A DNA stretch of 64,000 nucleotides from an uncultured Pseudomonadales bacterium (lineage in GTDB: Bacteria; Patescibacteriota; Microgenomatia; UBA1400; Chazhemtobacteraceae). How positions within the stretch are numbered: the first letter of the stretch is position 1; each line of letters begins with the position of its first letter. The stretch is taken from positions 260,908 through 324,907 of the forward strand of contig CAZUBK010000001.1 in assembly GCA_964618725.1 (NCBI GenBank), in the 5' to 3' direction. Positions 15,662 to 56,010 of the stretch are shown piece by piece. The notes below the pieces were generated by a model, which saw only the letters and a program-made list of their open reading frames with translations, had not been told where the DNA came from and made no database searches. Position numbers and translations under genes: made by a program.

Positions 15662-15687
15662 GAGCTGATTGTAGCTGATTAAAGTGC

Positions 15688-15891
15688 CTATTTACTCACA
15701 AGATTGAGAAGTTCAGGTAACACAAGTTTGGCATAACTGATACCAACAAAGAAACCGACTATAGAGCCATAAACAAGTTGAAAGGTATGACCTCGTTTAT
15801 CAATCGCAAAAAAAACAGATCCAACCACTTCAAAGAACCAATATAAAACTCCTGCGACATAGACAAGTGATATAACAGCAAAAAGAACCAA
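15688..15891 (-). CDS. Small two-TM membrane protein (67 aa), hypothetical; TTG start
   Basis: The listed start codon is TTG. The sequence has two clean TM helices. An alternative 48-aa frame with GGAGGT-N6-ATG (15759..15941) competes for this DNA. Confidence 0.2.
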   Translation of the reverse strand: MVLFAVISLVYVAGVLYWFFEVVGSVFFAIDKRGHTFQLVYGSIVGFFVGISYAKLVLPELLNLVSK

Positions 15892-15909
15892 GCGCTAAGA
15901 TTCATCTCA

Positions 15910-16101
15910 TCACCTCCATGCTGAGAAATATGGGTATACAAAGTGGAAATAGATCAATACCATTGGTATCGCGACTAAGATGACTGATAGAAGCTGAATC
16001 TTAAGTCTCTTTGAGAGACTCGCGACCCCCGCCATCATAGAGCCAGTAGCAGCTAACCAGGAAATAGTTACTGCCCAGAATCCAGTTTCGTAAACATCCA
16101 T
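15910..16101 (-). CDS. Small two-TM membrane protein (63 aa), hypothetical
   Basis: ATG preceded by GAGGTGAAAC. Two hydrophobic helices. Confidence 0.35.
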   Translation of the reverse strand: MDVYETGFWAVTISWLAATGSMMAGVASLSKRLKIQLLSVILVAIPMVLIYFHFVYPYFSAWR

Positions 16102-16164
16102 GTTTCACCTCGACTATGAAAATGTGCGTGTTATAAGTTTATCATCGAAGCGACAAAATGTCTA

Positions 16165-16193
16165 TTGACATTCGTATTTTATTTGGTTTAAAT
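16165..16193 (+). promoter_or_regulatory. Sigma70-like promoter for 16246..16731 (TTGACA-17-TTAAAT)
   Basis: ttgaca at 16165-16170, a 17-nt spacer, ttaaat at 16188-16193. Confidence 0.45.
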
Positions 16194-16245
16194 AGATGTA
16201 GGTTCGGAAATACTCTAAAGGATTGTAAATAGCATATTGACTAAG

Positions 16246-16731
16246 ATGAACACGAAGAAGGTTGTGGAAATACTATTCTGGGAATACATAAAAGGTACGA
16301 GGGCAGAAGCAATTGTCACTAACGTTACGTCTTTTTTGTGCCACCTACCTAACGGCGTTAAAGTTGCTATGGAGCTACCTTCCTCCAAGGTCTATGTGAC
16401 GACTAGAATGATTAAACATTTGTATGATGCGAAACCAGCTGAAGAATTTCACTTTGTGGTAGATAATCTACTTACTCTTATTAGATGCCCTGACGAAATA
16501 TACCTAAACAGAGGTTCAAAGAGAGCTAGTTTTTGCATACTGAAAAAAGTAAAAGGAGAATACTATTTTTGTCCTCTGGAAATCGTAAACCACGAAGAAG
16601 AGCTCGCCGAAGAGAAACTAAATGGATTGTATGTCGTGACCGCTTTTAGATTAAGAAGAAAACAAAAAGATAAATATTTGAGAAATTATAAACTGGTGTG
16701 GAGATGGAGGGACGACGTTTCCTCATCGTAA
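16246..16731 (+). CDS. Hypothetical protein (~161 aa); the only plus-strand gene in a ~35-kb minus-strand run
   Basis: The track start at 16237 is TTG. The first ATG is at 16246 (MNTKKVVEIL...). Flanked by non-coding DNA on both sides. Lys/Arg-rich C-terminus (RLRRKQKDKYLRNYKLVWRWRDD). Confidence 0.55.
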   Translation: MNTKKVVEILFWEYIKGTRAEAIVTNVTSFLCHLPNGVKVAMELPSSKVYVTTRMIKHLYDAKPAEEFHFVVDNLLTLIRCPDEIYLNRGSKRASFCILKKVKGEYYFCPLEIVNHEEELAEEKLNGLYVVTAFRLRRKQKDKYLRNYKLVWRWRDDVSSS

Positions 16732-16860
16732 CGCTTTGGATGTCAGTTTCCTGATCTACTTGCGCCCCGCAGTAGAGCCGATTATTTCTGCATTTCAACC
16801 CCACATCAGTTAACAATTAAAGTTCTAGGTTTTATTATACAGGAGTTAGTCAAATGTTAA

Positions 16861-17775
16861 CTACTTTAGCCACGAGCCTTTGCCGAACCTACCCCGAAAG
16901 AAGTCAATTACAGCAGTCCTTTGTGCTTTGGTTCCGGAAATGAGAAAACGGATGGCCTCGCGCAAAAGGGCGAACCGAGTACGGAGGGAGGCATAAGTAA
17001 AACCAAAAAGAAGCCTATTCCTGGTGATGAAGTAATCGTTTAGAGAGGAGCCTACTCCTGAGCTCTGGGAGACTTTGTGCCACAAATAAATAGTGGGATC
17101 AAAGACAACTTGCCAACCCTTCCGCTTGGCTCTGATGGAGAGTTCGAGGTCTTCGAGATAGAGGAAGTAACGCTCGTCAAAGAGGCCGATCTGATCAACG
17201 ACCTCTTTTTTGATGAGTAGACAGGCACCGGTGGCAAAATCAGTTGGGGTGGTTTTTTTGAATTGCCCCTTATCTACCTCATCTACATGGGCATTGCTGC
17301 CAAGGACGTTGTTAATATCAAGTATTCCACCAGCACTCCAGATAACTTTACCTAATTCATTTTTCTCATACCTATCTTTGTGAAATTCGTAGCCCTGTGC
17401 AAAATAGATCTTGGGAGTAACTAGGCCAACACTGGGATCATTGATGGCGCTGTTAATCAAATCGGTAAAAAATGATTTTGGGACAACAGTGTCGTTATTG
17501 AGAAAAAGAATATGGGAAGGATTATTCTTTAGAGCTTCTTTGACTCCAAGATTGTTACCGCCGGCAAAGCCGGTATTGGTAGAAGCGACAATTAGTTTGA
17601 CCTGTTTTTGGAGGCTCTTTTTTAGAATCTTCAGCGAATCATCGGTAGAAGCATTTTCGACTACGATAATTTGATGTGAGAAGTCCTTAGGAACATTTGC
17701 CTCTGCAAGAGAATTAAGACACTCAAGAGTGTCTTTGGCTGTGTTGTAATTGACAAGGACGATACTTAGTTGCAT
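16861..17775 (-). CDS. Glycosyltransferase family 2 (rhamnosyl/GlcNAc-transferase-like GT-A)
   Basis: MQLSIVLVNYNTAKDTLECLNSL...IIVVENASTDDS...FLNNDTVV; classic GT2 N-terminal and DxD motifs. Confidence 0.8.
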   Translation of the reverse strand: MQLSIVLVNYNTAKDTLECLNSLAEANVPKDFSHQIIVVENASTDDSLKILKKSLQKQVKLIVASTNTGFAGGNNLGVKEALKNNPSHILFLNNDTVVPKSFFTDLINSAINDPSVGLVTPKIYFAQGYEFHKDRYEKNELGKVIWSAGGILDINNVLGSNAHVDEVDKGQFKKTTPTDFATGACLLIKKEVVDQIGLFDERYFLYLEDLELSIRAKRKGWQVVFDPTIYLWHKVSQSSGVGSSLNDYFITRNRLLFGFTYASLRTRFALLREAIRFLISGTKAQRTAVIDFFRGRFGKGSWLK

Positions 17776-17780
17776 AAGTA

Positions 17781-18695
17781 TTACAACTTAGGGATGACTT
17801 TTCTCTTGAACTTAAGAAAAAGACGAGCGAGAAAGGGTTTAGTAAAATCGAGACGGAAGGTATAGAACCAAAAGAGGAAGTCTTTAAACTTTGTGACGAG
17901 TAAGCGATCAAGCTCGCGTATAAAGGGAGTACCGGATTGTTTTTTGAAATCTTGCTGTTCCCAGACAAGAAGATAAACAGTGAACTCGGAGAATGCCTGG
18001 AGGAGGGCGAGAACTAATCCGTGAAGGCCGTCTTTGTAGCCTTGGCCAGCAAAGAAACGGGAGAGGAACTCACCTAGAGGCTTGGTGATGAGATCGGTCC
18101 AGTGAAATTTATATTCTTTCTTGATCAGCTCTTTAGCTTGAACTCTGGTGTAGCGGTGGAAGCGCTCAAAATAGCTTTGGATGGAGGGATAGTTGTAGTG
18201 AAGTAGAGCAAGACCTTCTTCGGCCGGGAGAGTAAGACCTTCACCATAAGTAATGGGGATGGAGTGAATGGCATTTTGCCACTCTACCTGGTCTTTCTTG
18301 AAAAAGCGGATATTGTAGTCAGGCCACCAACGGGAGTGCTCAAGCCATTCTCCAAAGGCAATGTTTTTTCGAGGAATGCGAACAAAGTTGTATTTGTCTT
18401 CAAGAGCGATTTGATAGAGCTTAGCTGCGAGATCTTTGGGGACACGTTCATCGGCATCAATGATGAGCAACCAATCGCCTTTGGCTTGTTTGATGGCAAA
18501 GTTTCGAGCTGGCTCAACGTAGCCCATGCGTTTGTGATTGAAAACATTCTTGGTATACTTGTAACTTAAATCTTTGGTCCTGTCATCTGAATCCATGTCA
18601 ACGACGACTATCTCGTCGACCCAATCAAGTGACTTGAGACAGTCAATGATATTCTTTTCTTCGTTAAGAGTGTTAATGATGGCGGATATCTTCAT
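17781..18695 (-). CDS. Glycosyltransferase family 2 (paralog of 11597..12397)
   Basis: MKISAIINTLNEEKNIIDCLKSL...IVVVDMDSDDRT...LLIIDADERV. The C-terminal half aligns with the 11597 protein. Confidence 0.8.
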   Translation of the reverse strand: MKISAIINTLNEEKNIIDCLKSLDWVDEIVVVDMDSDDRTKDLSYKYTKNVFNHKRMGYVEPARNFAIKQAKGDWLLIIDADERVPKDLAAKLYQIALEDKYNFVRIPRKNIAFGEWLEHSRWWPDYNIRFFKKDQVEWQNAIHSIPITYGEGLTLPAEEGLALLHYNYPSIQSYFERFHRYTRVQAKELIKKEYKFHWTDLITKPLGEFLSRFFAGQGYKDGLHGLVLALLQAFSEFTVYLLVWEQQDFKKQSGTPFIRELDRLLVTKFKDFLFWFYTFRLDFTKPFLARLFLKFKRKVIPKL

Positions 18696-21600
18696 GGTTT
18701 ATTTCTAGAATAAAGTTTGTATGGACCGGCGTCAAAGATGGGAGAGAAACCGAGTTGACCCAAATCAAACTTGGGCACTGAGAAGGGATCAATGAGGATA
18801 TAATTAAGCGGAGTGTCTTTGAGAAAGTTCTTAGCAAAAATTTGACTGTCTGTGAGGAAGAAGCGTTGATTAAGAGTTTGTTGCTCTTGATAGTCGTAGT
18901 TACTAATCTCAAGGTTAACGTTGTCGGCAAAGTAGACGGGCTGTCCGGTAAGAGCGGTGACATAAGAAGTGGAGTCGAAGGCGAAGAGCGGTTTGGGGGT
19001 AACAAGTGGCTTGGCTCTCTGCTGTTGGTAACTGGGAGAAAGGACTAGTCCAGGAGCACTTCGGCGTAGTATGTCGAGTTGACGAAGCTGGGGGTAGGGG
19101 ATGAAAGTGGAAGGAGAAAAGGAAGTATAGTTTCTTAGCGACCCAACAGTTGTAGATAGAGCAAAGATAATGAATGCAGCGGTTAGTAGACTTAGCTGAA
19201 GGAGATTGCGACAACGAGAAAGGAGGGAGATAATGACGGGACCGATCAAAAGGTTTAGGAAAAAGAGGGAGTAATAGGAGAATTGGATAGAGTTCCAAGA
19301 ATTACCGGATTGAATAAAGATGAGGGGAACGATCAAGCCGACTATGGTGATAAAAAAGATAATTTTGGCAGTATCCTTTTCTTTGATAAGAGAGGCTAAT
19401 CTAGGTAGAGCGAGGAGGCGGAGACCCAGGTTACCAACCAAGTATAGAAATAATCCTATTGACTGGAGAAAAATGAGTTTTAGATAGTTGCCGCTCAGGA
19501 GGTAGTTTTGCCAGGCAGAGGCAAAATACGGGATGAAGAGGCGGTCTTCAGCGGCAAAGAGAGCCTTGATAAACCAAAGCGGCGAGAAAATAAAAAGACT
19601 ACTACCCGCATTGTAGGTGGGGAGAAAGAAAAGAAGGGTGAGAGCAACAGAGCTAAAGAGAATCACAGATAAAGAGCGTGTTCTCTTAGGGGAACGAAGA
19701 AGGGAAAGAAGAAACAAAAGACCAAGAGAAATAAGGAGAAGGATGGAGGCGTAGGCTTTAATCTGGATAAGTAGACCAGCGAGGAGAGAAAGAACTGCTG
19801 TGCGACGAAGAGTTAAAGCATTTATCCAGCGATCAAAAAGAATGAGGAAACCAAGCAAGATAGTTAATGAAAGAGCAAAGGGAGGGTTGACGAGGGTAGT
19901 GACGGACTGGGTCATCCAGAAGGTAGATTCACCACCAAAAGGGCCGTGGCCACTGATGAGAGAAGGAATGAAGCCAAGAGAGCCCATGAGATAGACGGCG
20001 AGAAGAGAGACGCTGATGGCAGAAGTGGTGAACTTTAGACGACGAAGCAAAATGGCCGAGAAAAGGCCGACAAGGATAGAAATCACGGCAGGGACAAAAC
20101 GAAAATATAAATCGAGTGAAGAGATACTAGTGGCCCAGGTAAGGAGACCGAGAAAATAATCATAAAGGAAATGATAGTTTTGGAGCTGATGAGAATAGAG
20201 ATTGGGATTGGCGAGGGAAAGAGGTTCCCTGGCAAATGATTCGATTAAAGAAAAATGAACTAAGGCGTCATGACTATGTGCTCCGAAGAGAGTAAGACCA
20301 AAGGAATTTAATTGTCCTGATTGCCACATCGTTAACATCCACACCAGGGATCCAAAAAGAATAGTGAGAGTAACGGCAATATTACCTTTGGCAATAGTAG
20401 CGACTCTCTTGGGAGTGAGCCCAAGAAAATAGAGAACGATGAGGACAAGGGCAATAAACTTGGCTAGGTCAAAGAGAAAGCTCAGTCGAGAGTGAAAGTA
20501 GGGCGCCCAATTTGAATTGAAACTAAAGGTTGTCTGACTAGAGTCAATTTTCTTAGATATGGCGGGGTGGGGCGGGAGGATGAAGTCGATGTTAGTCGTT
20601 ATTCCCTGTGATTCAAGATTTATGAATTGCTCTTGGTCGGAGAGATCAAGGTGCCAGAGACCTTTCTCGACGCCAATTTGAGCCGTCTTGAGGTTGAAAT
20701 CGATATCTAGTGGGTTACCTGAGATGAGGGGGTAATTGGTCAGAGACAACTGGGGCAGAAAGTTTCTGACTTGGCGATAGTCCTCGGCTTCGATATTGTT
20801 AAAGATGGTTAGTTGAGTGATTTTACTTTGGCCATTGGTTTGAGTCAGACGAATTTGATAAAAGGGGTTGACGTAATAGAGGTCGGTGTCGAAAGGAGAA
20901 ACAGACTTGAGATAGTAGGCGGGGCTAGTGGCGAGATAACGCTGGTTGAACCAGGTACCGAATTCGCCTAGTTTCAGTGGCCTAAAGTTGTAGCTTTGGT
21001 TGGCGGTGGTGAGAAATTGAAGATATTGGCGGAACTGGCTTAGGAAGGGGGCAAAGTTTGAGCGGTTGTCTATACCGACGGTCACTTGGCCAAATTCGCT
21101 TAAAGGAGAAGTAGATAAATCGATTAAGTGATCGGTAAGGCGCTTCTCGGCTTGCCTCGGATTCCAGTAGGTCAAACCAATAGAGATCTTTTCGCTTCGA
21201 TTTTGGCTTGGGACGAGAGCGTTGTTCTGATGAGGAAAATAGGGGAAATGAGTAAAGGGAGTGATCAGAGACGGGGGGACCGAGTCGAGGGGGGTAATGC
21301 CATAGGTGGCGGCGGTAACCGAGTATTTCTTTTGAAGATACTCAAGACTAAAGCTATCTAAATAGGTGCCACCGACGCTCTTGGGGTAAAAGCCAAAACT
21401 CTTAAAGAAAAGTTCCATGTAAGTATTAATCAACTTGATTCGATCCCTGGGGGTGTAACTATTAAGGTAGTTCATCGTCTGGCTATATTCAGCGCTGAAG
21501 CTAAGCTTGCCAAGTAAAGACCGATCTACTTCTAACAGGGCGCCAATCTCGTGATTAGTTTCCTTGGCCAGCTTTTGGAAATAACTAAGTGAAAGGGGAG

Positions 21601-21832
21601 AGTTTAAGACTTTATAATCAAGAAGCCAGGTGATGGGGGTGGCAGCTTTAGTGGCTTCCTCAGTAATAGCGATGGGGAGATCAAGAGTGGAAAATGGTAG
21701 ACCATCTGTAGGTAAGATCTCACGGATGGGAAAAACGAAGTTAATGAAGGTTTCTTTTTTGAAGGCATATGAGGGGCTAACAAAGAGAAAAAGACTAAGA
21801 ATGAGGGTAAATAGGGTAAAGAATCGTTTCAT
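18692..21832 (-). CDS. Bipartite envelope protein (1046 aa): secreted conserved N-domain (paralog of 13868..15661) fused to a large polytopic membrane domain
   Basis: Signal peptide, the shared N-domain (see 13868..15661), then more than 12 TM helices from about residue 450 to 900, and a C-terminal soluble tail. Confidence 0.7.
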   Translation of the reverse strand: MKRFFTLFTLILSLFLFVSPSYAFKKETFINFVFPIREILPTDGLPFSTLDLPIAITEEATKAATPITWLLDYKVLNSPLSLSYFQKLAKETNHEIGALLEVDRSLLGKLSFSAEYSQTMNYLNSYTPRDRIKLINTYMELFFKSFGFYPKSVGGTYLDSFSLEYLQKKYSVTAATYGITPLDSVPPSLITPFTHFPYFPHQNNALVPSQNRSEKISIGLTYWNPRQAEKRLTDHLIDLSTSPLSEFGQVTVGIDNRSNFAPFLSQFRQYLQFLTTANQSYNFRPLKLGEFGTWFNQRYLATSPAYYLKSVSPFDTDLYYVNPFYQIRLTQTNGQSKITQLTIFNNIEAEDYRQVRNFLPQLSLTNYPLISGNPLDIDFNLKTAQIGVEKGLWHLDLSDQEQFINLESQGITTNIDFILPPHPAISKKIDSSQTTFSFNSNWAPYFHSRLSFLFDLAKFIALVLIVLYFLGLTPKRVATIAKGNIAVTLTILFGSLVWMLTMWQSGQLNSFGLTLFGAHSHDALVHFSLIESFAREPLSLANPNLYSHQLQNYHFLYDYFLGLLTWATSISSLDLYFRFVPAVISILVGLFSAILLRRLKFTTSAISVSLLAVYLMGSLGFIPSLISGHGPFGGESTFWMTQSVTTLVNPPFALSLTILLGFLILFDRWINALTLRRTAVLSLLAGLLIQIKAYASILLLISLGLLFLLSLLRSPKRTRSLSVILFSSVALTLLFFLPTYNAGSSLFIFSPLWFIKALFAAEDRLFIPYFASAWQNYLLSGNYLKLIFLQSIGLFLYLVGNLGLRLLALPRLASLIKEKDTAKIIFFITIVGLIVPLIFIQSGNSWNSIQFSYYSLFFLNLLIGPVIISLLSRCRNLLQLSLLTAAFIIFALSTTVGSLRNYTSFSPSTFIPYPQLRQLDILRRSAPGLVLSPSYQQQRAKPLVTPKPLFAFDSTSYVTALTGQPVYFADNVNLEISNYDYQEQQTLNQRFFLTDSQIFAKNFLKDTPLNYILIDPFSVPKFDLGQLGFSPIFDAGPYKLYSRNKP

Positions 21833-23316
21833 GAGTGTAGATTAGAGTAAATAGTCTTGAACTGTCTAATTAAAGCATTCCCCTCGACTAAATAGACGGC
21901 GGTGAAATAGATCAGGACAGAACCAAGAATAACAGGAATAAAGATCACTAGGTTGGTGAGAAGTGGTAAAACCAGAATCAGGCCAATGGCCAAACAGAGG
22001 CTCCCCAAGATGGGGGCCTTGAGGGCAAGAAGGAAATTGGCATGGGTGAGACGAGAAATGATGACAAAGACGACAATTGAGCTCAAGGAAATCAGAGCGG
22101 CGGAAATGGAGACACCCAGATAGCCAAAGCGGATGGCCATAAAGGGCATGAGAGTCCAAGTGAGGACGGTCCACATGATCATGAGTTTGAAAGTAATCTT
22201 GATCTTACCGATGGCATTAAGGGCATTGGTAAGGGGAGTAGAAAGAACGGCAAAGGCGGCGTTGATAAGATACAAGTAGAGGGGAATGAGAGCCGGGAGC
22301 CATTTTTGATAGCGGGGAATGAGATCGATTAAAGGTTTGGCGAGAATACCCATACCAACAAAGATAGGGAAACAAAGAAGGGCGAGAAAAAAGAGCGTAC
22401 GTTCGATACCTTTCTTTAGAGTCTCGGGGTGGTGCTGAACGCGTGAGTAGGCTGGGAAAGCGACTTTGGTGACATTGTCCATAAAGAAACGAAGCGGTTG
22501 GTTGGCCCAACGAGAGGCCCAGCCGATGTAACCCAAGCCAGCCGAGCCGATGATCCGACCCAAAATTATGGTCATACCGTCGTCTTTAATAACGGCTAAG
22601 AAAGTGTTGAGCTGGAAGGGAAGGCCAAAGTGAAGGAGCTTCTTGAGGGAGGCTTTGGAGATACCAAGGATTGGTTGCCAAGGAGCGATGACGTAGATGG
22701 CAGCTAGTCCGACGATGCCTCTAATCAAAACCGCGGCAGTAAAGGTGTTGATCCCCCAGCCTTTCCAGGCGAGATAGACGGCGGTGATATTGAAAGCGAG
22801 GTTCTCTAAGATCTGGGGGACAATTAGCTTGTTGAATTGAAGTTCTCTTTCAAGCAGGATGGTAGGAATAGTTTTCAGCGAGGAAAGGAATAACGAGATG
22901 CCAAGCGACCACATGAGATAAATCCCAGCAGAGGAGAGTCCATATTGAGTCTTGATTAAAGGTGTGGCAGAAAAAAGGATCACTAATAGAGTAAGAACAA
23001 GCGCTTGTTGGATAGTGAAGGTGGTTTTCAGGTCATCGTCGGTGACGGCCTCTTTTTTCTGAATAAGAGCGGCGGCAAGACCAATATCGGCAAAATAGGT
23101 GAGGAAGTTAACTACAGCAGAGACTAGGAAGAAGGTGCCATAGATCTCGGGGGAGAGGAAAACGGTGAGGGCAAAAGTAGCGATGAAGGTGATAATTTGG
23201 ATGATAAAGGTCCTGGAAGTGAGTGCGACGACACCAGAGATGGAGCGAGCTTTGATGGAATGTAGATCGATCTCTGGCGTACCTGGATCAAGCTCGATTG
23301 GTTGAGACTCAGACAT
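21829..23316 (-). CDS. Polysaccharide/oligosaccharide flippase (Wzx-like, MOP superfamily)
   Basis: 495 aa with about 12-14 TM helices. N-terminal VALTSRTFIIQIITFIATFALTVFLSPEIYGTFFLVSAVVNFLTYFADIGLAAALIQKK is typical of Wzx/PST family proteins. Confidence 0.7.
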   Translation of the reverse strand: MSESQPIELDPGTPEIDLHSIKARSISGVVALTSRTFIIQIITFIATFALTVFLSPEIYGTFFLVSAVVNFLTYFADIGLAAALIQKKEAVTDDDLKTTFTIQQALVLTLLVILFSATPLIKTQYGLSSAGIYLMWSLGISLFLSSLKTIPTILLERELQFNKLIVPQILENLAFNITAVYLAWKGWGINTFTAAVLIRGIVGLAAIYVIAPWQPILGISKASLKKLLHFGLPFQLNTFLAVIKDDGMTIILGRIIGSAGLGYIGWASRWANQPLRFFMDNVTKVAFPAYSRVQHHPETLKKGIERTLFFLALLCFPIFVGMGILAKPLIDLIPRYQKWLPALIPLYLYLINAAFAVLSTPLTNALNAIGKIKITFKLMIMWTVLTWTLMPFMAIRFGYLGVSISAALISLSSIVVFVIISRLTHANFLLALKAPILGSLCLAIGLILVLPLLTNLVIFIPVILGSVLIYFTAVYLVEGNALIRQFKTIYSNLHS

Positions 23317-23396
23317 AAGGAAATTCTAGCATGGGGACCGACGGGTAACTAATCCTAATGTTGGTCATTGTGACCGGCTTGAGTTAAAATGAGCCA

Positions 23397-24236
23397 ATGA
23401 ATTTTACTTGGGGAAATATTTTTATTGATGGCAAGATAGAGGAGACAGAGAAACTGAAGGAAGATTTGGGGCTATCTGATTGGAATCCAGAAGATCCAGA
23501 AGAGATTTGGCACACGCTACATGATAAACAGAAAGAATTAGACCGGATACTGGGAGGGAGGGTTGAAGTTAGCTTGATTACCTATGCGGATGGAGAGGCG
23601 TGTTTTGATTTCTATGTTTCTGGGGAAAAGAAGGAAGTGACAAAATATAGGGAGGAATTTCAGATGGATATTAAGCTTTGGGAGTTGTGGGAGAAGTATT
23701 CCAAGAGGATGTTCGAGAATGTACAGAACGGAGTTCAATACAAACAGGACATGACCAAGGGATATTTTCTTTCTGAAGATGAGGTGATGAGGAGAATTGA
23801 AGAGGAATTTATCGATCTTGTACCGAATTACATAGATGGGATCAAGAAAGTTTTGTTTGGATGTAAAGATGATGATAAGAGGGCTGGTGCCGCTTATTTG
23901 ATTGGCTGGCATGATGACAGGAAAGAGGCATTAGAACTTCTTAGTCGGGCAATTGCTGAAGATCCAAGTCATCACGTTCACAATAACGCTCTAAGAGTAA
24001 TGGTACCCTTGACGAGAGTTCTTAAGGTATCAATTCCAGATGCTGTGTTGAACATGCTGTATCACCCCTCGACTGCCTGCATCAACAAGGCTTTGTGGTT
24101 AATCTCAGAAGTAAGCAAAGAGGACTTGATATCAATTCCCAAGAGATATAAAGAAAGAATTCAGATTTTATCGGAAGTTAAACAAAAGAATTTAAGAGAT
24201 ATTGCAAAAGAAATCATAAAAAAAGGGTTGCAGTAA
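23397..24236 (+). CDS. Hypothetical soluble protein (279 aa)
   Basis: Intact ORF, acidic and helical, with no motif I recognise. Convergent with the ATP-grasp gene. Confidence 0.55.
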   Translation: MNFTWGNIFIDGKIEETEKLKEDLGLSDWNPEDPEEIWHTLHDKQKELDRILGGRVEVSLITYADGEACFDFYVSGEKKEVTKYREEFQMDIKLWELWEKYSKRMFENVQNGVQYKQDMTKGYFLSEDEVMRRIEEEFIDLVPNYIDGIKKVLFGCKDDDKRAGAAYLIGWHDDRKEALELLSRAIAEDPSHHVHNNALRVMVPLTRVLKVSIPDAVLNMLYHPSTACINKALWLISEVSKEDLISIPKRYKERIQILSEVKQKNLRDIAKEIIKKGLQ

Positions 24237-24243
24237 GCAACCC
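24218..24243 (-). terminator. Rho-independent terminator for the minus-strand ATP-grasp operon
   Basis: Minus-strand reading: GGGTTGC-ttact-GCAACCC followed by TTTTTTT. Overlaps the last codons of 23397..24236. Confidence 0.45.
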
Positions 24244-24274
24244 AGAAAGAGTTAACGATACACTCTTAATAGCC

Positions 24275-25215
24275 TTAATAAGAGCTCGTCATTGGGAGTC
24301 CGGTTAATTGTTCCAACCAATACCACTGACCGTTGGCGTTGGTTTCAAGATAAATGTAATCACCATCCGGAGTAACTATCATGTCAGAAGCTGAGTAGTT
24401 GAGGTTGAGGGTTTTGTTAAGTTCCAATAGCTGTCGCTCAACCATGTAAGGTAATCGGACAGATTCATGACCCATTTTTTCAGGAAGCACTCTTCGCCAG
24501 TCAATTCGGCTGTCATCCATGGTTTGGGAGTCGATCTGAACGGCAAAGACTTGGTTGCCAAAGATGGTGATACGAAGCTCATATGCTTTAGGTATGCATT
24601 CCTGAAAGATTTCATCCCCACATTTTAGTTGGGGTGTGGCGATCCGTTCTAGAACTTGTGCGAGTTAGACTTGATTTGTCAAATGTTCGTATAGGACAAA
24701 CAGAATACGGACCAGGTAGTAGCCCTGGTCCGTTATGTTTAGCGCATGAAGATGATTCCTGGTGCATCAGGATCAATAGGGTTAGGGTCTTTGATGCCGC
24801 GATATACGGCACTAGCGACCCAAAGAGCTTCTTTCAGATTGTTCACTTGAGCAATTCGTCTTACCATAATGGCGACTTTACCAGCGAACTCGTGTGTCTC
24901 AATTGCCCCCTTCATCTCAGTGTGGGGAATGTAGTGAATGATAAGCGCGAGGTGGCCGAAAACAAAAACATCTTCGTCTTTGAAGGAATCTTGGCGAGCA
25001 ACGGCTGACTCTCCATTGTGTAAGAGTGGAGTAAGCGAAGAATGGACACTGAAAATCTGGTTGGTCAGATCTAGGCGAAGATAGCCATAAAAGCTATCAA
25101 AATCTAAATTGTGATCGTCGACGAGATCAAGCTCGGGAAGATTCAAAATAAAAGTGCCGGTGGCTAATTTGCTGATTCGGACAACAAAGAAACGATCAAG
25201 ATTGTCAGTCATCAA
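24275..25215 (-). pseudogene. Microviridin-type (MdnC/MvdD-like) ATP-grasp ligase, disrupted and split over two or three frames
   Basis: N-terminal ORF 24739..25215 carries ...DRFFVV..., ...IPHT..., FAGKVAIMVRR (ATP-grasp central region). C-terminal frame 24275..24664 reads LERIATPQLKCGDEIFQECIPKAYELRITIFGNQVFAVQIDSQTMDDSRIDWRR...LNYSASDMIVTPDGDYIYLETNANGQWYWLE. That matches my memory of MdnC (FQENIPKALELRITIVGEQ...DWR...LNYGAIDMIVTPDERYIFLEINPVGEFFWLE). The frames are separated by an in-frame TAA at 24665-24667 and a frame change near 24740. SD GGAGGT lies before the ATG at 25215. Confidence 0.6.
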
Positions 25216-25279
25216 ATACCTCCATTGTGGAATGTATTTATTCTACCAACTGTCGGGGGGATTGTCGATATCTATGGGG

Positions 25280-25549
25280 TTAGAGCCCAAGGTTGATATC
25301 AAGAAGGGCGTCACCAGAGAAGTCGTCAGGATTAGTTTTGTCCAAATCTTGATTGGTTTGATTCATTTCAGAATCAATATCGTCCTGAGGAGCAAGAATG
25401 GGAGTAGGCATTGGAGCAGGAAAGATAGTTTTGACAACGGGAGAGGACTGGAGATTTTGGGGCAGTTTGACGGTACCGGAGTAGACAAGGTACCAGAGAC
25501 CGAGGATGGCAGCGGCAATGAGGGTGAGGGTGAGATAGGTATTTTTCAT
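25280..25549 (-). CDS. Small protein (89 aa) with an N-terminal hydrophobic segment and an acidic, Thr/Asp/Glu/Lys-rich C-terminus; hypothetical (candidate substrate peptide of the adjacent ATP-grasp)
   Basis: MKNTYLTLTLIAAAILGLWYLVYSG...QDDIDSEMNQTNQDLDKTNPDDFSGDALLDINLGL. Its start is 10 nt after the stop of the 25560 gene and its stop is 65 nt upstream of the ATP-grasp start. Confidence 0.45.
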   Translation of the reverse strand: MKNTYLTLTLIAAAILGLWYLVYSGTVKLPQNLQSSPVVKTIFPAPMPTPILAPQDDIDSEMNQTNQDLDKTNPDDFSGDALLDINLGL

Positions 25550-25559
25550 TTGTTTTGTT

Positions 25560-26153
25560 TTACTGAGTAACAGTTGGGGTAGGGGTAATTGTAGCCTTTT
25601 GTTGTCTTAAGGCTCTGAGATCAGCTCTGATGACATTTTTGATGTAATCATGAATCTGCTTGGCAGAGGTGCGGAAAGTAGCGAGACTTTGACGCGAAGA
25701 GTTCATCTGACCCTTAAAGTTCACCATTTGTGACATACAGTCAAAAGTGAGAGATTTCTCGGCATCAATGACAAACTGAGAGTAGTCAGTGGCGAGATCC
25801 TCAATCATGATGGTAAGAGTAGCGAGATGAGTCCTAAAGATGGCGGTGTCATAACCTTGGCTGGTGAGCCGATCGGCTAGTTCAAGCCAGCGGGTGTGAG
25901 CTGAACGATAGACTTCGATGTGATTATCTTTACGAACACTGAGATTGTTGACGTGAGCACGAACACGACTTTCGATGGCAGAACATTTGTTTTCTATTCT
26001 TCTGGCCGATTGAGTAGAAACTCTCTGAGCTCGAAGAGTGGGATCCATTCGCTCCGCTCGCTGCGCCGAGACAGGGAGGGCGAGAAAGGAGAAAAGAAAG
26101 GTGAGAAGAAAAAGTATATTCATATCAATTTGGTCTTTCTTTATTATAACCAT
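25560..26153 (-). CDS. Secreted hypothetical protein (197 aa)
   Basis: Signal-peptide-like MNILFLLTFLFSFLALPVSA (the real start may be the internal ATG at 26123). No motif I recognise. Confidence 0.55.
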   Translation of the reverse strand: MVIIKKDQIDMNILFLLTFLFSFLALPVSAQRAERMDPTLRAQRVSTQSARRIENKCSAIESRVRAHVNNLSVRKDNHIEVYRSAHTRWLELADRLTSQGYDTAIFRTHLATLTIMIEDLATDYSQFVIDAEKSLTFDCMSQMVNFKGQMNSSRQSLATFRTSAKQIHDYIKNVIRADLRALRQQKATITPTPTVTQ

Positions 26154-27873
26154 TTCTTGTCAAGCGACGTATCTGCCAGATGAGATAACCCAGGGAGAAA
26201 ATGGTGATTAAGTTACTGAGAATGCGAATAAAGGTGTTGTGAAGTTTAACCTTAATATGATGAGTACCTTGAGGCAGCTCAATTTCAATTCGGCCTAAAT
26301 CGGCGTCATACCCATGCTTTATTTTTTTCCCATTGGCAGTGACTACCCAGTTGGGATATTCAAAGATGGGCAACTGGAGGGTAGCCAGCTTGGAGGAAAT
26401 CTTGGTATCAAAGAAAAGATAGTTAGTACCTTTCTCCATGTTCTGTATGCCGCCTTGGCCTTTGATAAATTCAGGATAGATCTGTCCGGGAGCACCAGGA
26501 GGGCGAGAAGCGGTTTTAGGCAGGTAGTCAAAGATTCCCCCAGTGGTCTGGAGTTCCCAGGCGTAACCGCTGAACTTTTCTTGGACGGTAGTCTTGACTG
26601 ACTTTTGGATGGCAAAGAAGGGCAGATTCCAAGCAATGACACCGACGATTAGGACGCTCGCGACAGCCCAATGGAGTACCTTGTTACTTGGAAGAAAAAG
26701 AAAGAGATAAGCCGAGAGAAAAGAGAAGATGAAGGTAGGGATGGCCAAGAGACGCCAAGGGAACTGGGCGTAGTAGAGGAAGGGAAGATGATCCCAGAAC
26801 CAAATGGAACGACTGTGAATGAGAAAAATGTAGAAAAGAGTAAGAGAAGTAAGTAGCGGAATGACCAGGCTAACACGGATTAGCTTGTGAGGACTTTTTC
26901 TTAAGAAGGAGAGTATTAGGAGACCGACAAAAAGAAAAGAGACGATAAGAGTAGTGATCCAATGAAAGTGGCCAATGGGGAAGGCCATGTCATCGTTGGG
27001 TCCCCAAGTGGAACCACCATAGCCCCAGAAGCGAGAAAAGAACATCTGGTTGATATCGGCATAGTGGGCGAGATAGTTGAAGTAACCAACGGTCATTGAC
27101 TCAACGTGGGCGAGGGACTTCTCGGCGACGACGGGAATGAAAAAGAAGGCGGCGAGACCGATGGCGAGAAAACCAGAGAGGATGAGGGGTTTAAGGCGAG
27201 AGAAATCCCTCATTTTGAAAAGCCAAAAGAGACCCCAAGCGGCTAAAAGTGGGGAGAAGATGAGGGTCATGACATTGTGAGACAGGAGTAGCGCGGCATA
27301 GGAAAGGGCTAAGCCGAGTCTGGCCCACCTGATGTCCTTGGCGGTGGCAACCGTATGAACATAGAGGAAAGTGAGAGGAAACCAAATGAGTCCCCAGGCT
27401 TCATTGAGGGCACCGCGAACGTAGATATCTACTGAATGATAGGGGGCATAGACATAGAAGACGGCGGCGAGTAAGCCGGCGATGGGACCGTGGAAGCGCG
27501 AGGCGAGGGCGAACATAAAGAGACCAGGGAGGACGAAGGCAAGAATGAAGACGAGTTTGATTGACCAGAAAAGATCGAAGCCGAGAAGATGAAAGACCTC
27601 AGCGACGTAATACGGAAGAGGGGGATAGTAGTTGAACATGGGGTAACCCAGACCAAAGCCGGCATCGGGAATCCAACGACAGGGAATCTGAAGATCCTTA
27701 AGACACTGGTGCAGTCCCTCAAGACGAAGAATCTGAAGATCATCGTGCATGGTGAAATAACCAGGGAGGAGAAGGTCCTTGATGGCGGGAAGTGACAAGA
27801 GGATGACCAAAAGATACCACTTGGAAGAAATTAAGAATTTCAAAATCTTCTGACCGGTTTTTTTAAGACTCAT
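26125..27873 (-). CDS. Polytopic membrane protein (582 aa), putative GT-C-like glycosyltransferase with a C-terminal periplasmic domain
   Basis: More than 12 TM helices, then a soluble C-terminal ~150 aa. Head-to-tail with the PMT/ArnT-like genes. Confidence 0.6.
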   Translation of the reverse strand: MSLKKTGQKILKFLISSKWYLLVILLSLPAIKDLLLPGYFTMHDDLQILRLEGLHQCLKDLQIPCRWIPDAGFGLGYPMFNYYPPLPYYVAEVFHLLGFDLFWSIKLVFILAFVLPGLFMFALASRFHGPIAGLLAAVFYVYAPYHSVDIYVRGALNEAWGLIWFPLTFLYVHTVATAKDIRWARLGLALSYAALLLSHNVMTLIFSPLLAAWGLFWLFKMRDFSRLKPLILSGFLAIGLAAFFFIPVVAEKSLAHVESMTVGYFNYLAHYADINQMFFSRFWGYGGSTWGPNDDMAFPIGHFHWITTLIVSFLFVGLLILSFLRKSPHKLIRVSLVIPLLTSLTLFYIFLIHSRSIWFWDHLPFLYYAQFPWRLLAIPTFIFSFLSAYLFLFLPSNKVLHWAVASVLIVGVIAWNLPFFAIQKSVKTTVQEKFSGYAWELQTTGGIFDYLPKTASRPPGAPGQIYPEFIKGQGGIQNMEKGTNYLFFDTKISSKLATLQLPIFEYPNWVVTANGKKIKHGYDADLGRIEIELPQGTHHIKVKLHNTFIRILSNLITIFSLGYLIWQIRRLTRNGYNKERPN

Positions 27874-27880
27874 ATCGAGA

Positions 27881-28990
27881 TCATTTTAACTTGATAGATT
27901 TAAGAATGATACTAAGAAGCCCTCCAGTCAGGAGATAGAGACTAGGGAAGATGACCAAGAGATGGCGGGGATAGACGGCTTCGAAGGAGAAGAGAAATAA
28001 GGAGAAAATGAGCCAAAGGACGAGGGGAAGAAAAAACAAATTCTTCCGAATTAAATAGTAAAAACTGGTAAAAAGACTACTGATAAGCAGGACTGGCCAG
28101 CCAGGCCACCAAAAAGGGGTGGAGATGATAGCCTCTTTCTCCCACCAAGTGTGCCAACGATTCATGAAAATTAGGTCGAAGACTTGGAGAGGTGGAACCT
28201 GGGGGCTGCCGGCCCACCAGGACAAGACGTAGCGCTGATACCTAAAGAACTCGAGAGGTGAGGGGTGATAAAAGAAATAGGTAAGATGGCCAAGGAAAAA
28301 ACCAAGAAGAATGAAGCTTAGGGCAGCAGTGTGCTGAAGAAATAACTTGAACTTGCCGGTAAAGACGGTGACAAGAAGAAGACTACCAAGGAGAGGGAAC
28401 CCGACGGGGAAGAACTTGGTAGCGAGAGCTAGCCCAAGAAAGAGCTGAGACAGAGCGATTTTGAGAAAGTGGGGACGCTTGAACCACGAGAGATAGAAAT
28501 ACAGTCCAGTAAGAGAAAAAACCAGAAGATAAATGTCGAGAAGGGAAGTAGTCAATTGATCGATGAAGAGCGGCTCGAATGAGAAGAGGCTGGTTAGAAT
28601 CAAACTGAGGAGGGGGGGGAGACCAAGGAGACAAGCAATGGAGTAAAGAAGCCAAAGAGCGAGTAAACCAAAGATCGGGGCAAAGAAGTAAGGATTACTA
28701 AAGAAGATAATGGAGAGACCGATTAGGTACTTGCCAAGGGGTGGATGGCCGGGAGTAAGTTGATGAAGATCTTTTCCGTGGATGAGGAAATAGCCTTCGG
28801 TGGCGTAAAGCTCTTCATCAGAAAGGATATAGCTGGCGCGAATTTTCCCATAGGAAGAGTTGAAATAGCGGTCCTCGGCTACTTTGGAATTAAAGGGTTG
28901 AAGGTAAATCTGGCGATGGGAAAAAAGAAAGAGACCAAAGTAGATGACTAAACTTCCAAGAAGTAAATAGAAGAGTTTGCCCGCCTTCAT
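27881..28990 (-). CDS. Protein O-mannosyltransferase-like GT-C enzyme (GT39 / PMT family)
   Basis: Loop-1 signature SDEELYATEGYFLIHGKDLHQLTPGHPPLGKYLIG (DE motif plus HPPxxK, as in Pmt1 DEVHFG...HPPFAKML). Polytopic, 369 aa. Confidence 0.7.
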   Translation of the reverse strand: MKAGKLFYLLLGSLVIYFGLFLFSHRQIYLQPFNSKVAEDRYFNSSYGKIRASYILSDEELYATEGYFLIHGKDLHQLTPGHPPLGKYLIGLSIIFFSNPYFFAPIFGLLALWLLYSIACLLGLPPLLSLILTSLFSFEPLFIDQLTTSLLDIYLLVFSLTGLYFYLSWFKRPHFLKIALSQLFLGLALATKFFPVGFPLLGSLLLVTVFTGKFKLFLQHTAALSFILLGFFLGHLTYFFYHPSPLEFFRYQRYVLSWWAGSPQVPPLQVFDLIFMNRWHTWWEKEAIISTPFWWPGWPVLLISSLFTSFYYLIRKNLFFLPLVLWLIFSLFLFSFEAVYPRHLLVIFPSLYLLTGGLLSIILKSIKLK

Positions 28991-30532
28991 TTATTTAAGT
29001 ATCTGATAAAACTGGAGGGTCTCGTGAGTACCGTCGGGTCGGAGGGGCTTTTCATACTCTGCAATCAACTTGACGTGATTTTGTAGATCTATTGGAGGCA
29101 AGTTATTGCGACTTTGGTTAACCACAAGGTAGACTTCATTTTCGACAAGAGCGTTTCTCAGAGACTCGGGAATTCTTCCGATAGGTTGGCCGATACCAAG
29201 AATGACAATATTGGGATGTCCCTCGGTGTATATTTGCAGGCCATCGGGTAAGGTGCCAAAGAAGCCTTCGGTGCCGACGAGGATTTTTGTCGTTGAGGGA
29301 CGAGCTTTTTTAAGATACTGCGCGACTAGATCTTGACCATAGCCGGCGGTCCATTCTTGGAAGTAGCCGTATTTCATGTTTTGGGGAATGGGGGCAGCTG
29401 GTGGATTAGTCAACAAAAGCAAGTCTTTGTAGCTTGCAAAAAGCAGTATCAGAAGGAAGAGGCCTGAAACGACTTTCTTGAGCGATTTGTGTTTTAGTTC
29501 TTCGAGGGCCAAACCGATGATGATGAGAAGTGGAGGAATGGTGAAGAGAAAATAGCGTGAAGTATAGGCCTTGGCAATAGAGGCCTGAAAGAGAATGGGT
29601 AGAAGTGACCAAAGGAAGAGGGATAGTTTGTAACTGCGGAAGGGCTTGAGAAAAAGTGATAAAAGAAGGAGACCGATGGCTGGCCAAGTGATGAGAGAGA
29701 TAAGCCAGCTAATGGAGTCGGTAAAGTGACCGATGAAAGGATTAAGAGGGTGACTAAGCACCTCGGCGAAAGAGAAAACGTAATCCTTGTTTCTTATGGC
29801 GATCATTTGAAAGTTGGGACCAAGACGAAGGATGTTATACATGGCAAAAACGATCACTAAGGCCACTAACCAACCACCAAGTAGTTTGAGTGCGATTACA
29901 CGATTAATCTTCTTTAGATTGAGAAGGAGAAAGAGTTGGAGAGGGAGGAAATACCAACCGGGCGATTTGGTTAAGACGGCACCACCAAGAATCATACCAA
30001 GCAGCAGGGCCAGATCGAGTCGTTGGTAATGAACGAAAAGTAGCCCGAGGAAAAAAGACCAGATGGCGAACATAGAAAGGAGGGAGTCGGCAAGCGCCAT
30101 GCGATCAAAGAAGAGAGTGAAAGGGGTAAGAATGTACAAAAGCAAAACGACAAAAATGGCTTTTTTGGACCGACTAATGTACCAAGTCAGACTGCTCAGA
30201 CCTATAAGTGAACCAAGTCCGGCAAGAATCGAGGTAAAGCGACCAGCGACAAGAGGATCGGAAAAAAGCTTGAACATCGGGATGGTCAGCCACATGAAGA
30301 GGGGCTGCTTGCCATCAGAAAGGGGTAAGAAACGAAGGGTCGGTTCTGTTCTCATTACTTGAGACCAGCGAATATAGATGGCCTCATCGACAAAGACGGG
30401 AATGAGGGTGAGATGAAAGAGTCTGGTAACTAAGTAAAGAATGATTAAGGCGGAGAAAATTAAGAGAAACTTGAGTTGGAGTAGTTTTTTCAGGTCAGTG
30501 GCTAGATTATTCATATTTGCCAAGTAAATCAT
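28991..30532 (-). CDS. ArnT-like GT-C glycosyltransferase (GT83/GT39-like)
   Basis: FVDEAIYIRWSQVMR...LSDGKQPLFMWLTIPMF matches the ArnT pattern DE.RYAE...KPPLLYW. 513 aa, polytopic. Start abuts the stop of 27881..28990. Confidence 0.7.
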   Translation of the reverse strand: MIYLANMNNLATDLKKLLQLKFLLIFSALIILYLVTRLFHLTLIPVFVDEAIYIRWSQVMRTEPTLRFLPLSDGKQPLFMWLTIPMFKLFSDPLVAGRFTSILAGLGSLIGLSSLTWYISRSKKAIFVVLLLYILTPFTLFFDRMALADSLLSMFAIWSFFLGLLFVHYQRLDLALLLGMILGGAVLTKSPGWYFLPLQLFLLLNLKKINRVIALKLLGGWLVALVIVFAMYNILRLGPNFQMIAIRNKDYVFSFAEVLSHPLNPFIGHFTDSISWLISLITWPAIGLLLLSLFLKPFRSYKLSLFLWSLLPILFQASIAKAYTSRYFLFTIPPLLIIIGLALEELKHKSLKKVVSGLFLLILLFASYKDLLLLTNPPAAPIPQNMKYGYFQEWTAGYGQDLVAQYLKKARPSTTKILVGTEGFFGTLPDGLQIYTEGHPNIVILGIGQPIGRIPESLRNALVENEVYLVVNQSRNNLPPIDLQNHVKLIAEYEKPLRPDGTHETLQFYQILK

Positions 30533-54372: not shown

Positions 54373-54493
54373 TGCCCGGCAATGACCTATTTTCGCAAAC
54401 AGTTGCCCGCGTACTATCGTCGGCGCTGAAGCGTTTCACGACTCTGTTCGGAATGGGAAGAGGTGGGACCACTTCGCTCGAATCACCGAGCAG
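54373..54493 (-). rRNA. rrf: 5S ribosomal RNA
   Basis: Minus-strand reading ...GCGAAGUGGUCCCACCUCUUCCCAUUCCGAACAGAGUCGUGAAACGCUUCAGCGCCGACGAUAGUACGCGGG... aligns to E. coli 5S (GCGCGGUGGUCCCACCUGACCCCAUGCCGAACUCAGAAGUGAAACGCCGUAGCGCCGAUGGUAGUGUGGGG). Helix I pairs UGCUCGGUGAU with AUUGCCGGGCA. Confidence 0.8.
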
Positions 54494-55004
54494 TCAGCAG
54501 TCCAAATTGCTTTGGACTGCCTCAGCTTTGTGATTTCACTTGGCTACTTAAAAAGTGAACAGAAACGTTGGTCGCTTCTCCTGCCCCTAACCGTTAATGG
54601 AATAACAGCTAAGAGCAGGGCGCTAAAAATTTTGTTTATCCTTCGACAATTAGTACTCATGAGCTAAATGCCTTACGGCACTTACACTTTGAGCCTATCA
54701 ACCTAGTAGTCTACTAGGTGTCTTTCGTTCTTTCGAACATGGATTCCTAATCTTGGGGTGGGTTTCCTGCTTAGATGCTTTCAGCAGTTATCCCGAATCA
54801 ATGTAGCTACCCGGCATTGCACTTGAAAGTAACAACCGGCACACTAGGGATTGACGCATCTCGGTCCTCTCGTACTAGAGACGAACCCCCTCAAGAATCC
54901 CGCGCTAGCAGCGGATAGAGACCAACCTGTCTCACGACGGTTTGAACCCAGCTCACGTAGGGTTTTAATGGGCGAACAGACCAACCCTTGGGACCTCTTC
55001 CTTC

Positions 55005-55751: not shown

Positions 55752-55775
55752 AGCCCCAGGATACCCTGAGCCGAC

Positions 55776-56010
55776 CAATTATTCCTTCTATTACTAGAGG
55801 TATGGACTATATCTTCTACTTAAATTTATAAGTAGTTTGGCGTGTTATACGTTCATAAAAAGAACATATCTCATCCTTGCGGAATCAGTCTCTACGGGGT
55901 CAATCCTTCGTTGAAAACTCAGGACGACTTCCCACGGTATTAACCTAAAATGTTCATGTTTAGGCCTCCACCGTTATAGCCAAATTTAGCCTCGACGTTC
56001 GTTGTGGTTA
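55776..56010 (-). mobile_element. ORF-less group I intron (~235 nt) in the 23S peptidyl-transferase loop (after the U of ...CUCGAU|GUCGG, E. coli ~U2504)
   Basis: Exons CUCGAU (56011-56016) and GUCGGCUC... (55771-55775 onward) flank a 235-nt insert ending in G. The core block acggggtcaatcctt also occurs in the 16S insert. Confidence 0.6.

Follow-up and report, generated by a model that had tools for sequence, protein, structure and literature searches.

We analysed a 64-kb stretch of DNA (here called the window) from a MAG of a Microgenomates (CPR) bacterium. Between g582 and the flippase gene g495 lies a lineage-specific island, whose features are collected in Table 1. In the six closest syntenic relatives (loci L003-L006, L011 and L012), g582 and g495 are directly adjacent, only 12-50 bp apart; the island is an insert that these relatives lack, and both of its flanks are syntenic Microgenomates genes. 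Searching for the island ORFs by tblastn in 22 syntenic loci gave no matches. The junction of g582 and g495 marks a variable site at which foreign or orphan DNA gathers. The host cluster around it is an otherwise conserved glycosylation/cell-envelope gene cluster.

Table 1. Features of the island, in window coordinates.
Feature	Position	Strand	Description
Lineage-specific island, about 2.8 kb	23317..26124	.	Between g582 and the g495 flippase gene
Convergent 279-aa orphan gene g279	23397..24236	+	In the same island; weak HEAT-repeat-like signal
Intrinsic terminator of the former ATP-grasp gene	24218..24243	-	7-bp GC-rich stem, 5-nt loop, T7 tail; -12.8 kcal/mol, z -4.6
Putative remnant (3' part) of an ATP-grasp ligase gene of graspetide type (MvdD/MdnC-type)	24275..24682	-	Final ~130 codons of ~323; native stop 24275-24277
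81-aa ORF, the longest within the remnant to run from start to stop	24275..24520	-	First in-frame ATG at 24520; in the ORF list, and called as an 81-aa gene in L106
Nonsense codon (TAA, in frame) close to the 5' edge of the remnant	24665..24667	-	Translation; HMM alignment passes through
Terminator of orf157	24697..24733	-	10-bp-stem hairpin and U-rich tail directly after the orf157 stop; -22.6 kcal/mol, z -5.0
Orphan gene orf157/158	24739..25215	-	Start ATG 25212 or TTG 25215; not the N-terminal half of the ligase
Promoter-like site of orf157	25240..25268	-	TCGACA-17-TG-TAGAAT, 10/12 consensus matches; consensus match only
89-aa ORF (orf89)	25280..25549	-	N-terminal hydrophobic anchor LTLTLIAAAILGLWYLVY, acidic tail; candidate precursor of the earlier note
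187-aa secreted orphan protein	25560..26123	-	Signal peptide MNILFLLTFLFSFLALPVSA|Q; 187-aa gene call in L106/L107

The island consists largely of orphans. None of the genes that typically accompany graspetide ligases (TPR, cluster-23/DUF6624-like, peptidase, SPASM maturase, transporter) was found in it, and the neighbours of the remnant in the island have no significant family in Pfam, NCBIfam, PHROG or PADLOC. Viral contigs, PHROGs and PADLOC likewise returned no match to the island genes except one generic ATP-grasp PHROG match of the remnant, and an Rfam scan of 23000-26500 found no RNA family. Among 5.8 billion proteins, g279 and orf158 each match themselves alone. The HEAT-like signal of g279 (Pfam HEAT_2, E 0.005) is below the cut-off, and its codon usage is atypical (-0.08 bits/codon, where real genes score 0.21 +/- 0.14); its stop codon overlaps the terminator of the former ATP-grasp gene. 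A resemblance of g279 to a partial ORF at a related locus (L026) had a pairwise E of 0.001 but an E of 0.37 by phmmer against all locus ORFs, and was set aside. DUF6624 is an accessory family whose genes come after intact ATP-grasp genes in at least six metagenome loci; membership of g279, g197 and orf158 was rejected (hhalign against a DUF6624 mini-profile, probability <=0.1%).

The island also encodes a core of about 130 aa (window 24679..24278, minus strand) matching MvdD/MdnC-type graspetide ATP-grasp maturases. An earlier note on this DNA had described a block with FQECIPKAYELRITIFGNQVFAV...DWRR...DMIVTPDGDYIYLETNANGQWYWLE at 24664..24275 of the minus strand, which is present and matches the family far beyond chance. 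The profile search proposed there recovers TIGR04184 (MvdD; E 2.3e-34, 119 bits, model positions 203-309 of 321) and TIGR04187 (E 1.2e-30, 107 bits), as well as TIGR04185 (E 1.8e-27). These scores miss the curated NCBIfam cut-offs (119 vs 475 bits for TIGR04184, 107 vs 350 bits for TIGR04187) since the match spans just one third of either model. With a purpose-built profile of 111 full-length homologs and 323 positions, the remnant reaches 175-180 bits (E 6e-55) at positions 185/186-314 (window 24679/24676..24281), and hhalign against the family gives a probability of 100% (E 3.5e-51). The PDB match to MdnC (5ig9, E 3.6e-25) covers residues 205-306, and the MdnC, MdnB, CdnC and AMdnB structures align with the remnant at residues ~205-350 only. 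We gathered 7157 homologs, of which the full-length ones (~320 aa) always align at their own positions ~195-320. The closest full-length relative shares at most 53% identity (best 52-53%), and no intact ortholog or close relative was found in a search of 1.84 billion representatives and of metagenome and viral contigs; among the viral contigs there was no match.

The fold of the ATP-grasp superfamily is shared with RimK/GshB-type enzymes of primary metabolism, and the piece could in principle come from one of these rather than from a RiPP maturase; there is a weak match to the RimK family alpha-L-glutamate ligase (TIGR00768, E 0.067), and the PHROG match, annotated as 'S6 glutaminyl transferase', has an E of 2e-9. 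This reading is almost certainly wrong, as the RimK match amounts to only 12.5 bits against 64-119 bits in the MvdD, MvdC, SAV_5884 and grasp-with-spasm models, and the top PDB matches are all graspetide ligases. The placement in RimK/GshB that would have spoken against the earlier family call did not materialise. By its motifs and by its closeness to the RiPP ATP-grasp models, the C-terminal piece is a member of the graspetide ATP-grasp family, and the family call holds for this piece.

The rest of the enzyme is a different matter. The roughly 185 absent codons correspond to two domains, pre-ATP-grasp and central, which carry the ATP-binding lysines, the docking site of the leader peptide and the invariant residues K132, A139, P147 and K172. 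Searching all six frames with profile positions 1-185 (hmmsearch --max) found nothing at E<=100 in 23000-27000 and nothing at E<=10 in the whole window, which was the extent covered in the search for an N-terminal partner gene. The earlier note had instead placed the N-terminal half at 24739..25215, in a different frame from the C-terminal half, with at least two lesions between them and a third ORF (24612..24812) as a bridge. These ORFs do exist as described, as do those at 25280..25549 and 25560..26153. A full-length ligase broken by a frameshift near 24740 and a nonsense codon would also fit the arrangement of the two main ORFs, which lie side by side on one strand and would add up to ~290 aa, near the family length of ~320 aa. 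However, the ORF at 24739..25215 has no sequence or profile similarity to the N-terminal or central domain of ATP-grasp enzymes, with Pfam and NCBIfam matches at chance level only (E 0.06-0.1) and an hhalign probability of 0.27% against 30 full-length ligase homologs, and it contains no counterparts of the four invariant residues. Near 24740, where a change of frame had been read, another gene ends in its own TAA stop with a terminator hairpin behind it, and the supposed bridge has a negative coding potential (-0.21 bits/codon). A broken full-length gene is therefore extremely improbable. The anatomy first proposed does not stand: the N-terminal codons are missing from the window, the upstream ORF looks unrelated, and what is left of the ligase is, judged from its sequence, a 3' gene stump and not a frameshifted full-length pseudogene.

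The upstream ORF looks like a separate, self-contained orphan gene unrelated to the ligase, because it has a promoter-like site, a terminator, a Shine-Dalgarno sequence (GGAGG, 6-7 nt ahead of the ATG) and host-like coding statistics (0.264 bits/codon in frame, with host-like codon usage). ATP-grasp homology starts about 25 nt past the stem of its terminator hairpin, which is unique in the window and not a repeated element. We found no significant match for orf157/158 in Pfam, NCBIfam, PHROG or PADLOC, and an AlphaFold2 model of orf157 built without an alignment was uninformative (pLDDT 35). Public gene callers list it as an ordinary protein of 157 aa.

Could the apparent truncation be an artefact, made by a chimeric join or a collapsed region? 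The earlier note had offered a locally error-prone assembly as one option, and the sequence does come from a MAG, with singleton protein clusters in NCBI and Logan. The Logan contigs retrieved from one run (SRR12113422) also break off before reaching the junction from both sides, at 24355 and 24777, and leave it unspanned. Against this, a 95-kb Logan contig from another run (L106, SRR12113420) is 100% identical over 14,292 bp (window 15280-29571), junction included, although both assemblies may share reads. The syntenic Microgenomates genes on both flanks also argue against a chimera, as do the GC and codon usage of the stump, which are host-like (base composition does not separate the remnant from the host). 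Finally, what lies at the junction is a well-formed gene end with a terminator, not a random break. We consider a local assembly error unlikely.

The remnant itself is hardly decayed. None of the 12 columns that are invariant in the C-terminal part of alignment A1 (K, R, Q, DWR, D, E, N, G, Q, W) has been lost, and the core of the remnant scores 161-164 bits, compared with 176-182 +/- 13 for held-out intact proteins. The in-frame TAA described earlier is real, and homology extends about 4-5 codons past it, to ~24679. Recoding of this codon was considered and rejected; TAA is an ordinary stop in 28 of the 42 genes in the window. An uninterrupted ORF of ~320 codons is not present, since the TAA intervenes and the first in-frame start comes only at ATG 24520. 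We found neither a Shine-Dalgarno sequence nor a -10 box before this ATG, where the upstream sequence is TGCCGTTCAGATCGACTCCCAAACC. Public gene callers nevertheless list the 81-aa ORF as a protein. With about 185 N-terminal codons absent, a nonsense codon and no signalled start, the claim that the ligase is inactivated was right.

The good preservation, with all invariant residues and a single nonsense codon, could also be explained by purifying selection acting on a small stand-alone product. The C-terminal domain might then be expressed by itself, either as the 81-aa protein or by readthrough from orf157, in a non-catalytic or trans-complementing role. Its near-completely conserved family-invariant residues, family-typical profile score and retained native terminator are consistent with this, and databases contain short homologs of 130-190 aa. 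We nonetheless regard such a role as very unlikely. Besides the missing start signals, a strong terminator stands just upstream; the 81-aa product would not include the FQE-IPK-ELR strands, and with the central domain its ATP-binding lysines are gone. Of the short homologs, the one that we checked (P0002) is cut by contig ends, and several others have no Met start. Truncated graspetide ATP-grasp proteins in the literature also keep their N-terminal domains, not the C-terminal one (PMC8939145).

Upstream of orf157 lies orf89, which the earlier note had put forward as a substrate peptide. It has a coding potential of 0.466 and forms a singleton protein cluster. Its first 20 residues form a hydrophobic anchor (transmembrane or signal), which is atypical of cytoplasmic precursors. 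When compared with the leader motifs PFFARFL and Phhx(1,2)h, it offers only a low-information PVVKTI string at residues 37-42, and it lacks the TxxxTx(6-10)Dx(1-4)D signature of branch-1 CPR cores. No similar ORF was found in 104 related loci, and no homolog near the intact relatives. A functional maturase that could act on it appears to be lacking. The secreted protein next to it is equally isolated, with no significant family in Pfam, NCBIfam, PHROG or PADLOC and no relatives in the loci compared; a longer reading of 197 aa would start at 26153, inside the preceding gene. The island could instead be what survives of a broken-down Microgenomates graspetide locus: orf89 or the 187-aa secreted protein would once have been linked to the ligase, and the C-terminal domain would still be under selection, either alone or with a partner outside the window. 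We find this very improbable; if the domain were selected, this would be an ATP-grasp arrangement, split or minimal, of a kind not yet described in graspetide systems.

Compared with the MdnC/MvdD microviridin ligases (PDB 5IG9; TIGR04184), the remnant shares the region of MdnC residues 205-306 and the hallmarks FQE-IPK-ELR, DSQ, DWR, D-MIVTP and LE-N-NGQW. Unlike them, it encodes only ~40% of the protein, without the N-terminal and central domains that bind ATP and the precursor leader; it also contains an in-frame stop, has no PFFARFL-type precursor and reaches at most 53% identity. The earlier note was surprised to see a graspetide maturase in a small genome. This surprise is unfounded, because graspetide loci of CPR bacteria, to which the present host also belongs, have already been described in branches 1 and 2 (Makarova et al. 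2022, PMC8939145). Branch-1 CPR loci have a TPR-repeat protein directly downstream of the ligase (PMC8939145). The same arrangement is seen in the closest intact relatives found (L025-L027; 52-53% identity, similar GC). Here, in contrast, the ligase appears to be a stump and no TPR, DUF6624-like, peptidase or SPASM partner accompanies it. The truncated ATP-grasp proteins of branch 8 (PMC8939145) offer another parallel, as incomplete and probably catalytically dead frames in a graspetide-family context; the remnant differs in keeping the C-terminal domain alone, in being unique to one genome and in having no start signals.

Taken together, the locus very probably holds a non-functional 3' stump of a graspetide-type ATP-grasp peptide ligase gene, of which the C-terminal domain, the native stop and the terminator are left and the 5' 60% is gone. 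The place of the lost part would have been taken by the unrelated orf157, with its own promoter-like site, Shine-Dalgarno sequence and terminator, and the stump sits in an orphan-gene island inserted at a variable junction of a conserved glycosylation/cell-envelope cluster. Two origins may be envisaged: the 5' part may have been deleted or replaced in a once-intact, horizontally acquired graspetide locus, or an already partial piece of foreign DNA may have been captured. The event was presumably recent, as the remaining sequence is hardly decayed. No close relatives for dating it or for a dN/dS analysis were found (best identity 53%). As far as can be predicted from the DNA, the stump is an ordinary gene remnant that cannot make a working enzyme, and the locus would yield no graspetide.

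Some caution follows for the annotation of such loci. Public gene callers present both the ORF of 81 aa and that of 157 aa as ordinary proteins, and a reading based on motifs can mistake neighbouring ORFs for a single 'frameshifted' enzyme. When graspetide ligases are counted in mined CPR genomes, the N-terminal and central domains should be required. With CPR graspetide loci already documented, the biological weight of the stump is small; it would be a further decayed relic of RiPP genes that move horizontally.

Judged by its sequence, the C-terminal block described in the earlier note is a graspetide ATP-grasp domain. Its 129 codons (24664..24278) match four graspetide-type NCBIfam models: TIGR04184 (MvdD; E 2.3e-34, model positions 203-309 of 321), TIGR04187 (E 1.2e-30), TIGR04185 (MvdC; E 1.8e-27) and TIGR04192 (grasp-with-spasm; E 1.7e-17). 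The matching solved structures are MdnC (5ig9, residues 205-306), CdnC, MdnB and AMdnB, bearing out the family call. RimK reaches just E 0.067 (12.5 bits) in NCBIfam, and the alternative placement in RimK/GshB therefore fails. When 1.84 billion representatives were scanned exhaustively with HMMER, 7157 homologs emerged; full-length ones are about 320 aa, the aligned part always being their positions ~195-320, with identity no higher than 52%. A custom 323-position ligase profile, built from 111 full-length homologs, gives 175-180 bits at 24679/24676..24281 (profile positions 185/186-314), its alignment continuing across an in-frame TAA, while hhalign against a 30-sequence full-length ATP-grasp alignment gives a probability of 100% (E 3.5e-51). 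The best-scoring database homolog, P0007 (716 aa), fuses two complete ATP-grasp ligases of the graspetide type into a single polypeptide, with a Pro/Ala-rich linker between them.

The 157/158-aa ORF upstream had been read as the N-terminal half of the same gene, displaced by a frameshift. No such half is present: with six frames searched and filters off, profile positions 1-185 had no match in 23000-27000 (E<=100) or across the whole 64-kb window (E<=10). The ORF itself has no ATP-grasp match in Pfam/NCBIfam, only chance-level matches (E 0.06-0.1), an hhalign probability of 0.27% against the same 30-sequence alignment, and no homolog but itself among 5.8 billion proteins. Its GKVAIMV and IPHT, claimed as ATP-binding motifs, are thus chance strings. 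It bears every mark of an independent gene, with a promoter-like site, GGAGG 6-7 nt 5' of ATG 25212, a terminator hairpin, and an in-frame coding potential of 0.264 bits/codon (real genes 0.211 +/- 0.137; all other frames negative). The ATP-grasp homology starts ~25 nt past the hairpin. As the ORF is separate, the two-halves anatomy is unsupported, and the ORF said to bridge the halves (24612..24812) is noise by its coding score (-0.21 bits/codon).

A local sequencing error or a locally error-prone assembly, the latter also considered earlier, is unlikely, since Logan contigs (an independent assembly set) are identical to the window. Contig L106 (95 kb, run SRR12113420) has 100% identity over 15280-29571, as do two short SRR12113422 contigs over 23396-24355 and 24777-26165, with the junction 24356-24776 outside them. 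These two contigs (L105/L107) stop either side of the junction between the 157/158-aa ORF and the ligase remnant, at 24355 and 24777, which could reflect low coverage, or a graph branch from strain variation at that spot.

The remnant retains its native stop, a canonical terminator (24243..24225 plus T7, z -4.6) and 12/12 family-invariant residues of the covered region. Profiles made from 70 homologs give its core 161-164 bits, vs 176-182 +/- 13 for 41 held-out intact proteins, at the low end yet within their range. There is one nonsense codon; recoding of this TAA is ruled out because TAA is the usual stop, ending 28/42 genes. The first in-frame start (ATG 24520, 81 aa) lacks both an SD and a -10 box. 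The gene was rightly called inactivated. From the MdnC-type architecture summarised in PMC8939145, ligase activity would be inconceivable without the central domain (invariant lysines, leader-binding region).

With the ligase dead, the precursor question is largely moot. The proposed substrate, an 89-aa ORF, opens with a hydrophobic anchor of 20 residues, which sets it apart from cytoplasmic graspetide precursors. The core pattern TxxxTx(6-10)Dx(1-4)D, reported for precursors of CPR branch 1, is absent from it, and none of 104 related loci has an ORF resembling it, leaving that role unsupported.

Searching with the 582-aa membrane protein g582 (genes are named by aa length) retrieves 22 syntenic loci, which come from MAGs of the Microgenomates group (Collierbacteria, Woesebacteria, Amesbacteria and others). 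As the best identity to g582 is ~50%, the window belongs to a CPR genome that has no close relatives among those sequenced. The six closest loci share the order g248-g513-g582-g495-g1046-g304-g304, with 12-50 bp between g582 and the flippase gene g495, vs 2.8 kb (23317..26124) in the window. By tblastn, the island's five ORFs have no match in the syntenic loci; g279 and the 157/158-aa ORF are orphans in protein searches, and no island gene matches phage or defence systems. Exact look-up found 4/5 island proteins, all singleton clusters (the 197-aa reading of the secreted protein is missing from the collection). More distant relatives carry different cargo here (g582 paralogs, metabolic genes, a 228-aa ORF), so the g582/g495 junction is a variable hot spot among Microgenomates.

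In L010, L014, L016, L017, L018 and L019, 1-5.5 kb of cargo separates the g582 and g495 homologs. By eye it includes tandem g582 paralogs, a carbohydrate-kinase-like ORF, an adenosylhomocysteinase-like ORF and glycosyltransferases; the 228-aa ORF, in L014, looks transposase-like. Between g513 and g582 the window has a 369-aa membrane protein, with a weak PMT-family match (Logan annotation), that almost all syntenic relatives lack at this site; it is thus the cluster's second lineage-specific insertion.

Features of the window
Feature	Position	Strand	Remark
g582, membrane protein	26125..27873		upstream of all relevant minus-strand ORFs
369-aa membrane protein	27881-28990
187/197-aa secreted protein	25560..26123/26153	-	first ORF downstream of g582
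89-aa ORF	25280..25549	-	second after g582
Promoter-like site	25268..25240	-	TCGACA-17-TAGAAT with TG extension; upstream of 157/158-aa ORF
157/158-aa ORF	24739..25212/25215	-	third after g582; ATG 25212 or TTG 25215
Hairpin	24733..24707		directly after TAA of 157/158-aa ORF; 10-bp stem, U-rich tail; -22.6 kcal/mol, z -5.0
Ligase remnant frame	TAA 24665-24667 to stop 24275-24277	-	59-nt gap after 157/158-aa ORF
g279, 279-aa gene	23397..24236	+	convergent with the minus-strand ORFs
rRNA operon	54374-64000	-	unusual layout
16S	62793 to past 64000
tRNA-Ile	62340-62414		within rRNA operon
Three protein ORFs	60851-62008, 59724-60755, 59117-59752		between tRNA-Ile and tRNA-Ala
tRNA-Ala	58745-58818		after the three ORFs
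23S	55949-58522		just ~2574 nt
5S	54374-54490		1.46 kb beyond 23S; 166-aa ORF between
TAnAAT-box start regions (examples)	23316, 5875, 31253, 32260, 34499, 60755		GCTAGAATTTCCTT-ATG, GCTATACTTACCAAG-ATG, GATACAATCAAACC-ATG, GGTAGAATAGGGCA-ATG

Elsewhere in the window, model positions 597-1533 of the 16S take up ~1208 nt, pointing to an insertion of ~270 nt; rRNA-gene insertions are typical of CPR genomes. Many window genes lack a Shine-Dalgarno and have instead a TAnAAT-like box 6-10 nt before the ATG, which suggests that leaderless or very short-leader mRNAs are frequent in this genome.

Graspetide loci have been described from two branches of CPR bacteria, where TPR proteins and an accessory family termed 'cluster 23' often accompany them (Makarova et al. 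2022, PMC8939145). In the nearest intact relatives (L025-L027; 52-53% identity, GC 0.41-0.46) a TPR protein lies directly downstream of the ligase, with an IS630-like transposase directly upstream in L026, and in other intact relatives a DUF6624 gene follows. Unlike these, the window's island neighbours are related to neither TPR protein nor DUF6624. DUF6624-family genes lie directly 3' of intact graspetide-type ATP-grasp genes in at least six unrelated metagenome loci (L081 (6512-7510), L069, L060, L088, L066, L045), and may be the 'cluster 23' family of PMC8939145. L026 has a partial ORF (3-296) lying 1.8 kb upstream of its ligase gene, the closest intact relative, and this ORF weakly resembles the g279 C-terminus (27% over 95 aa with window 23964-24221, pairwise E 0.001; only E 0.37 by phmmer on all locus ORFs), and a former g279-ligase linkage is unproven. 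What the locus preserves is genuine but non-functional: the 3' end of a gene from a known enzyme family, lying inside an orphan-gene island. That ligase family was already known from this phylum.
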